From an uncultured bacterium (GTDB lineage: Bacteria > Acidobacteriota > Thermoanaerobaculia > Multivoradales > JAHZIX01), in the NCBI GenBank assembly GCA_965368975.1, contig CBDUPA010000010.1:64001-128000 (forward strand): a stretch of DNA of 64,000 nucleotides. The letters run 5' to 3'. Numbering within the stretch: the stretch's first letter is position 1; each line of letters opens with the position of its first letter. Both the position numbers and the translations under genes were made by a program. Under the pieces are notes generated by a model, which saw only the letters and a list, made by a program, of their open reading frames with translations, had not been told where the DNA came from and ran no database searches. Shown piece by piece: positions 45,483 to 57,363 of the stretch.

Positions 45483-46523
45483 TCAGCCGCCGATGCGGAA
45501 CATCTCGACCTTGTCGGCAGGCTCGAAGGTACCCTGGCGGAGGGCTTCACTGCGCTGCTCCGAATAGCGATCCGCGCGCACCTGCCACAGTGACGCCAGC
45601 CGTACGCGCAGCTGGTCATCGCTCTCACCGGCGCGCAGCGGCGTCTTGATATCGCTACCGTGCTGGGCGAACAGGCAAGTATAGAGCTGCCCCTCGGCGG
45701 ACAAGCGCAGGCGATTGCAGTCACCGCAGAAGGGCTGGGTGACGGAGGGAATGACGCCAACTTCGCCGCCACCGTCGCGGTAGCGATAGCGCAGCGCGAC
45801 CTCGCCGCGATGGGCCGGAGCCACGGGTTCGAGCGGCCAGACGGCGTCGAGGCGCTCGACGATCTCACTCGCCGCCAGCACGGCCGACGGCTGCCAGCGG
45901 TTGACCGTGCCGACGTCCATGTACTCGATGAAGCGCACGGTGTAGCCGTGCTCGCGGCCGAAGCCGGCGAGGTCGACGAGTTCGTGCTCGTTGACATCAG
46001 CCAGGGGCACCACGTTGAGCTTGACCGGCAAACCGGCGGACCGCGCGGCCGTCAGCCCGCGCAGGACGGCGTCGAGGTCGGCGGTCGGCCCACCGATCCG
46101 GCGACAGGATTCTGCATCCAGGGAATGAAAGCTGACGGTGACCCTCGACAGGCCGGCTGCGGCCAGGGGCGCGGCGTTGTCCGCCAGCAGCGCACCATTG
46201 GTCGTCAGCGCTAGATCCTCGACACCCTCAATGGCACGCAACTGGGTAACCAGGCGGTCGAGGTCCTTGCGCAGCAGCGGCTCGCCCCCTGTCAGCCGGA
46301 CCTTGCGCACGCCGAGATCGACACACAGGCGCGCTACGCGGGTCATTTCTTCGAAGCTGAAAATCTCGCGCCGAGGAACAAACGAGTAGGCGCGATCGCC
46401 TGGCATGCAGAAGCTGCAACGGAAGTTGCAACGATCGGTCACCGAGATGCGCAGATCGCGGAGCGGTCGCCGCAGAGTATCAACCACCGTCTGATCAGAA
46501 CGCGGCAGGACAGGCAATGTCAT
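45483..46523 (-). CDS. moaA: GTP 3',8-cyclase MoaA (radical SAM)
   Basis: [38 protein letters not shown]-terminal IGG. Confidence 0.95.
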
Positions 46524-46532
46524 CGCGCGACC

Positions 46533-48158
46533 TCAGTCTTCGGAATCTGCGGCGGGTCCGAGGTCGACCGTCGGCGCATCCGCAATGTCGACACGCTGCG
46601 CCGGCACCCTATCGGGGCGCGCTACGACATCGGGTCGCGGTACGATGTCGCCAGCTGCAGGCACAGCCGGCGTCGAGATCGTCGGAGCGGCCTCCGGCCG
46701 GTGGCGCAGAACCGGGGGGCCCGGGCGCGGATCGGAAAGGTCCGACCGGCGCTCGGGAGGCCGTTCGTCCGGTGTCTGTAGACGTCCGAGAACGCTCGCG
46801 GGAACCGGCGGTGCCGCTGGTTGCGAGGGCCACTGCGGCCACTGCGGGCGGCCGGATTGCGGCAGCGGCAGCCCGAGAGCCATGACGAACTCCTGGCCCA
46901 GCTGGTCCGCCGTCGGCCGCTGCTCGACCCGCTTATCGAGCGCCTGCATGACGATCGATTCGACCGTCGTCGGCAGGTCCGGTCGGTACCAGCGGATCGG
47001 GCGCGGCTCTTCCTGCACGTGCTTCATCGCCAGCGCCACCGGCCCGAGGGAGGTGTCGCCCACGGGCAGTCGGCCGGTGAGCATCTGGTAGAGCGTCACG
47101 GCCAAGCTGTAGACGTCGGTGCGACCATCGTACTCGTCACCGCGAATGCGCTCGGGTGCCAGGTAGGCAGGCGTGCCGATCAGGCTACCCGTCATCGTAA
47201 GGCTCTGGTCGAGTGACGCGTCACCGACCAGCTTGGCGATACCGAAGTCGAGCACCTTGACCACTTCACCATGGCCGGCCCGGTGTAAGAAGATGTTCGC
47301 CGGCTTGACGTCACGATGGATGATGCCCTTGCGGTGGGCCTCAGCCAGTGCTTCGCAGATCGGCCACAGGATCTCGGCACAGCGCACGGGCGACATCGGC
47401 CCGGTCGCCTTCATCTCTTCGGCCAGGGAGTGCCCTTCGAGCAGTTCCATCACCAGGTAGGCGGCGCCGTTGGGCTGCACACCGATGTCCATCACCTCGA
47501 CGGCATTGGGGTGGCGCACGCGGCAGGCCGAAATGCCTTCCTGCCGGAAGCGGATCAGCGTCTCAGTGTCGCCCTGAATCGCGCCGTGCAGTACCTTGAT
47601 CGCCACCGGGCGCTGCAACGCCTGGTGCTGGCCGCGGTACACGGTGCCGCAATTGCCAGCACCGATCTCGCCCTCGATCCGGTACTTACCGATCACCTGC
47701 GATGTCGGTGCCGGCTGACCGCCGCCAGCCTGAAAGCGGGCACGGTCGCTGGCCGGAATCTTGTCGCGCAACTGGGCCTTGACACGTGCCAGCACAATCG
47801 GAAAATCGAGCGGCTTGGTGACGTAGTCGTTGGCACCGAGGTCGAGCGACTCGACGACGTCCTCGCTGTCGCTCTTCGCCGTCGCCATGATCACCGGCAA
47901 CTCGTCCTCACTGTAGCTCTGGCGCAAAGTACGCAGCACCTCGACTCCGCTCATGCCGGGCATCATGATGTCGAGCATCACCAGGTCGACCGGTTCCTCG
48001 TTGATCACGTCGAGCGCCTGCTGCCCGTCCTCTGCCACCAACGTACCGTAGCCGCGGCGGGCCAAGCGGCGCGACAGCATGTCGCGATTCATCTCGTCGT
48101 CGTCGACGACCAAGATGCGGTAGGCCTCGTTGCCGGTACGGTTCGCGGAGGGACTCAT
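46533..48158 (-). CDS. Receiver domain plus Hanks-type Ser/Thr kinase with Pro-rich tail
   Basis: REC (VVDDD, LDIMMP, TKP); kinase GAGNCG, VAIKVL, HRDVKPAN, DFG, APE; start at MSPSAN. Confidence 0.9.
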   Translation of the reverse strand: MSPSANRTGNEAYRILVVDDDEMNRDMLSRRLARRGYGTLVAEDGQQALDVINEEPVDLVMLDIMMPGMSGVEVLRTLRQSYSEDELPVIMATAKSDSEDVVESLDLGANDYVTKPLDFPIVLARVKAQLRDKIPASDRARFQAGGGQPAPTSQVIGKYRIEGEIGAGNCGTVYRGQHQALQRPVAIKVLHGAIQGDTETLIRFRQEGISACRVRHPNAVEVMDIGVQPNGAAYLVMELLEGHSLAEEMKATGPMSPVRCAEILWPICEALAEAHRKGIIHRDVKPANIFLHRAGHGEVVKVLDFGIAKLVGDASLDQSLTMTGSLIGTPAYLAPERIRGDEYDGRTDVYSLAVTLYQMLTGRLPVGDTSLGPVALAMKHVQEEPRPIRWYRPDLPTTVESIVMQALDKRVEQRPTADQLGQEFVMALGLPLPQSGRPQWPQWPSQPAAPPVPASVLGRLQTPDERPPERRSDLSDPRPGPPVLRHRPEAAPTISTPAVPAAGDIVPRPDVVARPDRVPAQRVDIADAPTVDLGPAADSED

Positions 48159-54960: not shown

Positions 54961-55014
54961 GACAACGCACCTCGATCAGGATTGGAAGATAGAAGAACTT
55001 CTAGTATCTCAAGT

Positions 55015-57363
55015 CTAGTTCGACCCTTCCCGCTCGATTTCGACTGTCCGTATCGAATCAGAGCCAGCAGCAGCCGATTCCGGTTCCAGCGGCCGGCTGG
55101 AAAGCGCCAGAGAGCGGATCTCGGCCTTGAAACGGGCGATGTCGAAGCTCCCCTTCTGCAGGACTTGCTGCACGCCACCGTTGAGGCGCTGGCGGTCGAC
55201 TGGCGACAATTCCATCGCCGTCACGACCACCACCGGCAAATCACGCCAGGCGTCGGTCTTGCGCAGCTCGGTCAGGAAGCCGAAGCCGTCCAGCTCCGGC
55301 ATGATCAGGTCCAGAAGAATCAGATCTGGGCGCCGCTCGGTCACTCGCCGCAGCGCCGTTACGCCGTTGTCCGCCTCCATCACCTGCCAGCTCTCGTGCT
55401 GCAGCAGCTGACGTAGCAGACCGCGCGCGTCGGCGTTGTCGTCGACCACCAGGGCGATCGGCTGGCTGGTGTCGGGACGCCGGTAGCGCTTGAGCAAGCG
55501 GCTCAAGCGGGCGCGCTCGAAGGGCTTGGTCAGGTACTCGGCTGCCCCCAGGGCGAAAGCCGTCTTGCGGTCTTCTTCGACGGTGATCATGATCACCGGG
55601 ATCTCCGCCAGCTCGGGCTCGGCCTTCAGCTCGGCGAGCGCCGTCCAGCCATCCTTGCCCGGCATTTGCACGTCGAGCGTGATCAGCGACGGCTTGATCT
55701 GGCGCGCGGCGCGCAGACCTTCGTCCGCACCACCGGCACAGGTGACGCTGAAACCCTCGCGCTCAAGGATGTCGCGCAGCAGCTCGTGCACCGTCGGATC
55801 GTCGTCGATCACCAGCGCCTGACGACCGGCGCCGGCACTTGGAATGGTGTGGTGGAACTCGCCCGAGTCGAGCAGTGAGTCCAGATTCTGCGTCGCCGCC
55901 GCATCCGCGCCACCGGTAGTCAACTCCGGGGCTTCGGCCGGCAGGTGGACGGTGAACACGGCTCCCTGCCCGGGTGTACTCTCGGCGCGGATGTCACCGC
56001 CCATCATCTCGCAGAAACGCTTGCAGATCGACAACCCCAAGCCGGTGCCACCGTACTGACGGGTGGTCGAGGCATCGGCCTGCGAGAAGGGCTCGAAGAC
56101 CTTGGCGAGCTGCTCGGTAGTCATGCCGATACCGTTGTCGGAAACACGGAAGCGCAACCACTCGCTGCCGCCCGCTTGCTTACGGCCGACCTCGAAGAGC
56201 ACCTCGCCGTTCTCGGTGAACTTGGCGGCGTTGGACAGCAGGTTGAAGAGGATCTGGCGCGTCTTGGTCAGGTCGGCGTTCAACTGGCCTGGTTGCTCGC
56301 ACACCACCTGCAGCTGGTTGCTGTTCTTGCTCACCAGCGGCCGCACCATGCTGGCCACCTCGTCGACCAGTTCGTCGACCTCGAACAGCTCTGCGTATAG
56401 CTCCATGCGCCCGGCCTCGATCTTGGACAAATCGAGCACCCCGTTGATCAGGTTGAGCAGATGCTTGCCAGCAGTCTGGATCTTGCCCAGGTCCGGGATG
56501 AAGTCCTCTTGCCCAAGGTCCTCGGCCTCTTCCTGCAGCATCTCGGAGTAGCCGATGATGGCGTTCAGCGGCGTGCGCAGCTCGTGGCTCATGTTGGCCA
56601 GGAAAGTGCTCTTCGATCGATTCGCTTCTTGGGCGCGGTCGCGCGCGATGGTGATCTCTTCGTCGCGCGCCTGGATCTGCGACAGCATCAGGTTGAAGGC
56701 GTCGATCAGCAGGCCGATCTCGTCGTTGCCCTCTTTCTGGGCGCGCACCGAGTAATCCTGCTTCTCGATCACCACCTTCTCGACTTCCACCAGGTCGAGA
56801 AGCGGTTTCGAGATCAAGCGCTGCAGGGCCGAAGACAGCAGCAACGCGATCAGAGACACGGTGAGCAGTACCAACCCGAGGATCGAGCTGAAGTTGATCA
56901 GCCGCTCGCGGATCTCGCTCAGATCTTGCTGGATGTGGAACGAGCCGGCCCGCTGCCCACCGAAAATCATGTCGCGGAAGACCACCAACCGGTCGGTTTC
57001 GAAAACCTGTCCCTGAACTTCTGGCGCCACGGGCAGCACCGACCCGTCGACATCCGAGCGCAGATAGCGCGCAAACTCATTGCCGTCGTCATCGAAGATC
57101 ACCGCCGCGGTAATGCGCGGCTGCGCCTCCAGCGCCGACAGAACGTCCGCAGCTGTCTGCCGATCATTCACCACCAGCGCATTGACCGTCGTCGCCTGCA
57201 TCGTCTCCGCCAGCCCTCGCAGCGTCTCCGCCATGCGCTGGCGCAGAGTGAAGATGTCGTACAGGAAGAAGGCCGCCGAGGCAAGCACCAGGGCTACCAC
57301 GGTGGTCAACATGATGACGGTGGTCAGCTTTCGCTGAATCGAGAGATCCTCGAACTTGAACAT
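55015..57363 (-). CDS. Hybrid sensor histidine kinase (CHASE8-like, HAMP, HisKA, HATPase, two REC)
   Basis: SIQRKL..IMLTT N-terminus, two TMs, DEIGLL..FN (HAMP), [29 protein letters not shown], two receivers. Confidence 0.92.

Follow-up and report, generated by a model that had tools for sequence, protein, structure and literature searches.

Here we describe a set of genes in a 64,000-nucleotide stretch of the genome of an uncultured acidobacterium of the class Thermoanaerobaculia (assembly GCA_965368975.1, contig CBDUPA010000010.1, positions 64,001 to 128,000 of the forward strand; this whole stretch is the window, in whose coordinates all positions are given unless a locus is named). Seven open reading frames (ORFs) lie within 45483-57363, all on the minus strand and with domains matching those of an earlier, sequence-only reading; six of them form a conserved module, and the seventh, moaA, stands outside it. 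On balance we lean slightly towards a reading in which a CHASE8 hybrid kinase receives, across the envelope, a redox or gas cue from a TonB-dependent receptor whose heme c is covalently bound and ligated by His and Met. Attachment of heme to the receptor is in its own right, judging by conserved residues, rather probable.

The receptor (712 amino acids; 52822..54960, minus strand) has a signal peptide, a C-terminal Phe, and plug (PF07715) and barrel (PF00593) domains in Pfam. Its AlphaFold2 (AF2) model (predicted local distance difference test, pLDDT, 84.4) has 22 barrel strands by count and retrieves PirA, Cir and BtuB in Foldseek, and its sequence scores under the cut-off of every NCBIfam receptor family listed. 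The chain carries a CxxCH motif (C330-S-S-C333-H334; 53959..53973), and because the strand count in the AF2 model places this motif right after strand 7, it is predicted to lie at the start of extracellular loop 4. The motif is present in all 34 locus homologues and in all 120 listed homologues (455 were found), in 116 of which its two cysteines are the only ones of the mature chain; one of ten receptor-like ORFs in the receptor's own genome has it. A profile search of 1.84 billion representatives returned a top tier of 19 full-length clusters (717-972 bits), then a sister tier, then ordinary receptors. All 19 top-tier clusters and all full-length sister rows have the motif. Of the 90 low-tier rows that are full-length, a single one has it, and this one clusters with the sister tier, within the carrier clade. 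In a tree built without the motif and N-terminal columns, and with 12 rows chosen from the low tier as outgroup, the 68 carriers form one branch (FastTree support 100), within which a YfiR-associated gammaproteobacterial branch splits from a TPR-associated one.

One further residue co-varies with the motif. M110, in the plug hairpin loop (54631..54633), never varies across the 68 carriers (55 rows of the core and 13 of the sister group), nor do C330, C333 and H334, and the 12 outgroup rows have none of these residues. M110 aligns with the plug loop NGGSGQL of BtuB, which we take to face the outer ligand pocket, and it is a candidate sixth heme ligand that would lie near H334; a CxxCH paired with a Met gives the His/Met arrangement known from class I cytochromes c. 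The genome has three matches to the heme lyase family PF01578, which is present in 18 of 18 carriers, and 14 ORFs with three or more CxxCH motifs. Comparing the spacer residues of the receptor motif (mostly AG, AA or SS) with those of the genome's multiheme motifs, which are varied, gave no discrimination. The same residues might instead, within the same relay, bind copper or zinc, or form a disulfide in the loop, with the receptor sensing or importing metal. Soft metals are ligated by Cys, His and Met, all three of which make up the site of the copper receptor OprC, and an additional His, H348, is kept in 53 of the 55 core rows. Yet the invariant His right after the second Cys would be superfluous for a disulfide, the 25 best matches do not include TIGR01778, the model for copper receptors, and no metal-handling gene recurs among annotated neighbours; H348 is lost in the sister group, for which reason a C2H2 metal site requiring it was rejected. 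We regard this alternative as unlikely.

The genes around the receptor are conserved as a set. The hybrid sensor kinase (782 amino acids; 55015..57363) precedes the receptor by a 54 bp gap, and the receptor overlaps by 26 bp the gene for a secreted TPR protein (872 amino acids; 50229..52847), which in turn overlaps by 34 bp that for a secreted binding protein with a PhnD/PtxB/ArrX fold and a Pro-rich tail (49168..50262). After gaps of 138 and 7 bp come a REC-REC protein (287 amino acids; 48166..49029) and a REC-Ser/Thr kinase (541 amino acids, Pro-rich tail; 46533..48158), and 9 bp further on lies moaA (45483..46523). The earlier description of seven co-oriented genes with overlaps or short gaps is thus accurate, the longest gap being 138 bp. 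The kinase has two membrane segments; the receptor, TPR protein and binding protein have one N-terminal hydrophobic segment each, and neither receiver protein has any. A domain scan of 19 ORFs in and around the region shows, as the sequence-only reading stated, no permease, extracytoplasmic function (ECF) sigma factor or DNA-binding regulator. The parts of ECF cell-surface signalling of the FecAIR type (N-terminal signalling extension, anti-sigma factor, ECF sigma factor) are likewise absent from the domain scan of the locus. An OmpA/Pal-type YfiB domain is missing from the 19 ORFs, the rest of the genome not having been searched for YfiB.

We compared 113 receptor loci, 35 from species genomes and 78 from metagenomes (from the best 80 of 103 matches), which amount to 74 groups at 95% receptor identity, many of them on short contigs. 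With profiles built from the first loci, we found TPR in 37, the binding protein in 29, CHASE8 in 37, YfiR in 14 and a cyclase-homology domain in six; TPR and binding protein are fused into one chain in 14. YfiR never shares a locus with TPR or binding protein. Eleven loci (one pair near-duplicate) hold both hybrid kinase and binding protein, and the order kinase-receptor-TPR-binding protein is collinear in ten of these and rearranged in one (L024), which is more than chance. Co-conservation across genomes, which the sequence-only reading had named as a check, holds for the six signalling genes, the four-gene core keeping its order in 10 of 11 loci, and fails for moaA. The latter scores 362 bits on TIGR02666 (cut-off 284) and is the genome's only close copy, occurs in none of the 113 loci (profiles and tblastn) and in five of five relatives sits on a contig other than that of the module. 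It is a bystander with no part in the module, and the hint of a functional link to moaA can be dropped.

At the scale of whole genomes, a search that scored four candidates per genome detected the receptor in 18 of the 251 genomes of the class. The binding-protein family occurs in all 17 other receptor carriers (E 1.5e-67 or better), against one weak match in 30 non-carriers; CHASE8 is present in all 17 of these carriers and in 12 of the 30 non-carriers, and YfiR in 14 of 17 and 8 of 30, mostly adjoining other CHASE8 genes. These searches account for most loci that lack a nearby partner. In a one-contig genome (G115) three parts of the module lie at 3.17, 3.96 and 4.74 Mb, 0.8 Mb apart, and in two other genomes (G099 and G174) the TPR-binding protein sits beside the sensor with the receptor on another contig. 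In the soil clade, where receptors have no partner nearby, a HAMP-MCP chemoreceptor gene is divergent upstream in 15 of 51 loci examined (e.g. L075:123-2618). Two loci (L064:1708-6087 and L102:1795-5153) hold tandem receptor paralogues, both with CxxCH; in four (L075, L078, L101, L048) the receptor is split across two ORFs by a frameshift or an assembly error. A 1,243-codon ORF joining a kinase without receivers to a receptor (L022:2781-6512) was rejected as a true fusion in view of a signal-like stretch at the junction; it is probably a lost stop with an internal start.

What lies next to the receptor in the periplasm changes from branch to branch. The window genome, which is 99.3% complete, has no match to YfiR (PF13689), in line with the failure of the sequence-only reading to recognise one in the locus. 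Gammaproteobacterial orthologues stand in the order receptor-YfiR-CHASE8, one of them in the named strain Pseudomaricurvus alkylphenolicus KCTC 32386 (L035). The N-terminal segment of the receptor follows the type of partner, reading GEVxLFG in TPR-type loci (window 54799-54819) and LxLxLEEL-like in YfiR loci (L035-L046), a tracking that amounts to a single evolutionary swap. Sister-group receptors, found in 8 of 400 phylum genomes, adjoin an ABC_sub_bind protein in all eight loci (seven by Pfam, one by BLAST cluster) and a CHASE8-like hybrid kinase in three. In two of them TPR is fused to ABC_sub_bind (L146:6336-8081 and L147:6309-8054), a second type of TPR-binding-protein fusion with a different binding family. 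Two other loci (L019:12119-13971 and L123:2753-7296) have the receptor next to both ABC_sub_bind and a PhnD-like protein, without TPR, and L123 has in addition an adenylate cyclase and a HAMP-PP2C protein. The neighbours of the sister group imply that the receptor retains a partner in the periplasm while the family of that partner changes; across the clade it is YfiR, ABC_sub_bind or a PhnD-like protein with TPR, often accompanied by a CHASE8 sensor of varying output. By analogy, the TPR-binding protein pair of the window may be a substitute for YfiR.

The binding protein (PF12974; AF2 pLDDT 96), whose true start may lie 3' of the ORF start, matches PtxB, ArrX and AioX in Foldseek. This raises the question of whether the receptor simply imports a small ligand that the PhnD-fold protein binds in its cleft, thereby switching the kinase as AioX does with AioS. 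AioX, also of PF12974, stimulates AioS (PMC8050422); the window genome has five TonB_C matches, and the cleft has conserved residues of its own (R45, D154, D155 and E174 in aligned-domain numbering). However, the STS and HD motifs of the cleft, which we take to be the oxyanion-binding positions of PtxB and ArrX, are not kept: all 28 rows have DD (49654-49665) in place of the HD of PtxB and ArrX, the STS stretch is variable or deleted, and the fused TPR-binding forms lose it. An oxyanion ligand such as phosphate, phosphonate or molybdate is thus unsupported, and the oxyanion cue to which moaA had seemed to point falls away, moaA being incidental. Moreover, the partner has been swapped among three unrelated binding-type families while the plug loops of the receptor stay nearly fixed, and import would leave the CxxCH motif unexplained. 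We consider import of this kind improbable. The sequence-only reading had the ligand passed from the receptor through the TPR scaffold and PhnD-like protein to the kinase; these two proteins do take the place of YfiR in the co-conserved set, but the invariant CxxCH and plug Met indicate a built-in cofactor rather than an imported ligand. Among solved structures, the best sequence match of the binding-protein profile is PDB 7t1m (MCA1014, titled bacterial sterol transporter; E 5e-13), so that a lipid-like ligand is conceivable.

The hybrid kinase is the sole CHASE8 protein of the genome. It has the architecture TM-CHASE8-TM-HAMP-HisKA-HATPase-REC-REC in Pfam (TM, transmembrane segment; PF17152, 46.9 bits), an intact H-box, and a score of 210.5 bits on NF053592 (HK_near_YfiR_like), above the cut-off of 194. 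At the position of the docking stretch of YfiN it reads ALVVND (57163-57180), which aligns with AAVLFDD of a YfiR-linked sensor; the stretch is mostly xLVFNDR in TPR-type loci and AAVLF in YfiR loci. In related loci the output of CHASE8 proteins is a kinase, GGDEF-EAL or PP2C, and a similar swapping of outputs is described for YfiN homologues (PMC3375315). One locus (L110:12977-17067) has CHASE8-HAMP-PP2C followed by slr1658-like and slr1659-like small proteins (matches below cut-off, checked in this locus only) and a kinase-REC protein; this set reads as a partner-switch output on the same input, and it recurs in L105, L112-L114, L131, L132, L134 and L135.

At the cytoplasmic end, the first receivers have three intact Asp sites. 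The gene earlier called REC in fact holds two receiver domains, of which the first is intact and the second degenerate, without acidic pocket and Lys, and it lacks the cyclase-homology domain seen in six of six relatives checked. That domain itself looks degenerate by eye in the REC-REC-cyclase genes of L016, L017, L020, L021, L039 and L007, where the catalytic Asn/Arg positions, as we presume them to be, are not kept; it is absent from both the window and L051. The REC-Ser/Thr kinase has its catalytic motifs intact and is the only enzymatic output left in this locus. That the phosphorelay ends in a Ser/Thr kinase may hold here but was overstated, this kinase being one of several outputs: the gene is present in 7 of the 11 hybrid-kinase loci, convergent on the opposite strand in three of them (L016, L039, L051), and the remaining four have REC-REC-cyclase alone within the fetched stretch. 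Helix 1 of a receiver sets its kinase specificity. Among the receivers of the genome (45 found, 42 parsed), the two downstream ones have helix 1 in common, with matches at 11 and 10 of its 11 positions, while the other 40 match at five or fewer. As this match is unique in the genome, one shared kinase for both is likely.

We suggest the following mechanism. The cytochrome c maturation system would attach heme to C330 and C333 before barrel assembly, and H334 and M110 would be ligands of the iron within the outer pocket. If the oxidation state changed, or if a small molecule such as NO, CO or sulfide displaced the Met, the plug would move and its N-terminal segment would be freed in the periplasm. 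There the TPR protein, whose C-terminal end would bear the PhnD-fold domain, would replace YfiR, one end resting on the receptor and the other on the AAVVF-like stretch of CHASE8. The kinase could then phosphorylate both the REC-REC protein, at its first receiver, and the REC-Ser/Thr kinase, phosphotransfer to both being proposed because their motifs are intact and helix 1 is shared, so that a His-Asp signal would here end as Ser/Thr phosphorylation.

Several observations weigh against this proposal. A heme-bearing surface loop would need to pass barrel assembly, and in the literature searched no TonB receptor turned up whose surface loops bear heme. PF01578 is also present in 9 of 14 control genomes and thus discriminates little, and a Met occurs somewhere in the same plug loop in 12 of the 61 low-tier receptors with a locatable loop. 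The TonB box of the receptor appears non-canonical: EFTIQAA aligns with the VTA end of the BtuB box yet departs from that box. The kinase has Val at the central Phe of AAVVF, the predicted YfiR site in YfiN, where even conservative changes abolish YfiR binding (PMC3375315); the YfiN docking analogy is weakened accordingly. The shared helix 1 could equally stem from duplication. Of the 71 loci with at least 4 kb downstream, 33 show no YfiR, TPR or binding protein in the fetched stretch. The carrier genomes come from two families plus this genome, so that co-occurrence counts are not independent, and all co-variation rests on one motif origin and one YfiR/TPR swap.

The receptor might also be a heme protein with a non-signalling job, in electron or heme traffic, with the TPR and binding proteins helping heme loading or assembly and the kinase only a neighbour. 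In favour of this, the TPR protein reaches 62.7 bits with the TPR model for CcmH/CycH (cut-off 42), many soil-clade receptors lie far from any sensor, and Cyc2 is described as a barrel with one heme c for electron transfer (PMC8406198). We nevertheless find it quite improbable. The CcmH match is one among 25 TPR matches of a generic kind, TPR is missing from YfiR-type receptors and from most of those in the sister group, and the TPR-binding protein stays by the CHASE8 sensor where the receptor has moved away (L131, L132). Among annotated neighbours, moreover, there is no recurring transcription factor or cytochrome.

The composition of the locus gives no sign of recent transfer (GC 63-70% per gene, about 65% for large contigs). 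Despite this unremarkable composition, neither receptor nor binding protein was matched in five same-family genomes, and a plasmid collection gave no match at E 1e-60. Scans for promoters and terminators returned one and six sites, the same as in shuffled sequence, and are hence uninformative; a look-up of RNA runs listed none. On the far side of moaA lie a secreted fasciclin-domain gene (44813-45301, minus strand) and, about 0.8 kb past moaA, an FHA-GAF-PP2C phosphatase gene (42950-44701, plus strand) whose product might counteract the Ser/Thr kinase; the first 37 loci compared contain no homologue of it over the full length. An M23 peptidase gene (57551-59395, plus strand), in a stretch of lower GC (58-60% at 56-60 kb), is divergent from the hybrid kinase.

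The locus is a real and conserved variant of Yfi-type trans-envelope signalling. With YfiBNR of Pseudomonas aeruginosa it shares a sensor of the inner membrane with CHASE8 and HAMP domains, modular outputs, and three tiers of outer-membrane input, periplasmic relay and membrane sensor (PMC3375315); the AAVVF-like stretch of the sensor is a candidate further likeness. It differs in that its genome lacks YfiR and the locus YfiB, with a TonB receptor as input, TPR and PhnD-fold proteins as relay and a hybrid kinase as output. The main text of the YfiBNR paper makes no mention of TonB, and describes divergent YfiN-YfiR modules as mostly without YfiB (Malone et al., PMC3375315). The cassette TOL_0244/TOL_0243 YfiR-like/HK_near_YfiR_like (NF053590, NF053591, NF053592) resembles the locus in its kinase, which passes NF053592. 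However, the receptor scores 138.7 bits against a cut-off of 645 for NF053590, which excludes it from the TOL_0244 family, and the locus has no YfiR-like protein; TOL_0244 is described as a possible alkane transporter (PMC6304351). AioX-AioS-AioR and ArrX likewise have a PF12974 periplasmic protein without permease adjoining a sensor kinase, ArrX and AioX being top fold matches of the binding protein. Unlike that system (PMC8050422), the locus keeps no oxyanion positions, has a CHASE8 rather than the sCache-like sensor of AioS, adds TPR and receptor and has no DNA-binding regulator.

Heme importers of the ShuA/ChuA/PhuR type (TIGR01785) bind heme non-covalently. They have the same fold as the receptor and are its best NCBIfam match, with FRxP and NPxL-like stretches in common. 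Membership was nevertheless rejected: the receptor scores 174.6 bits against a cut-off of 316.85 and has no invariant His in the loop 7 stretch, nor a conserved one between its FRxP- and NPxL-like stretches, and the aligned stretches of the importers lack CxxCH. One CxxCH in an integral outer-membrane barrel protein is also found in the cytochrome-porin Cyc2 (PMC8406198) and in the CXXCH-containing MtrB/PioB barrel NF041027 (PMC13188914). Cyc2 is a 16-strand porin with a heme domain predicted to be periplasmic and a role in iron oxidation, whereas the motif of the window is predicted to be extracellular, in a 22-strand TonB receptor among signalling genes. In the full-text literature searched (by titles and abstract openings, with subscription journals outside it) we found no description of a CxxCH TonB receptor or of this module, although Table S4 of PMC3375315 may list such loci; PMC11495043 and PMC3650003 deal with other CxxCH proteins. 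The heme-c receptor component is probable in light of its sequence, and would be new in kind if confirmed.

It is conceivable, though we offer this only tentatively, that the whole receptor clade consists of outer-membrane cytochromes c acting as sensors. In Acidobacteriota, Gammaproteobacteria, Verrucomicrobia and others, with a covalent heme in surface loop 4 closed by the plug Met, they would read the redox state or a gas outside the cell and drive CHASE8 sensors and interchangeable periplasmic adaptors (YfiR, ABC_sub_bind or TPR-PhnD). The known role of TonB receptors is import, with signalling upon ligand binding in some; one bearing its own covalent heme on the outer face would represent a novel type of surface sensor and demonstrate that a loop loaded with heme is able to pass barrel assembly. 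The receptor clade is a candidate input for YfiR-CHASE8 modules without YfiB, and, on our reading of the TPR and PhnD-fold partner, the locus shows that YfiR itself may be replaceable.

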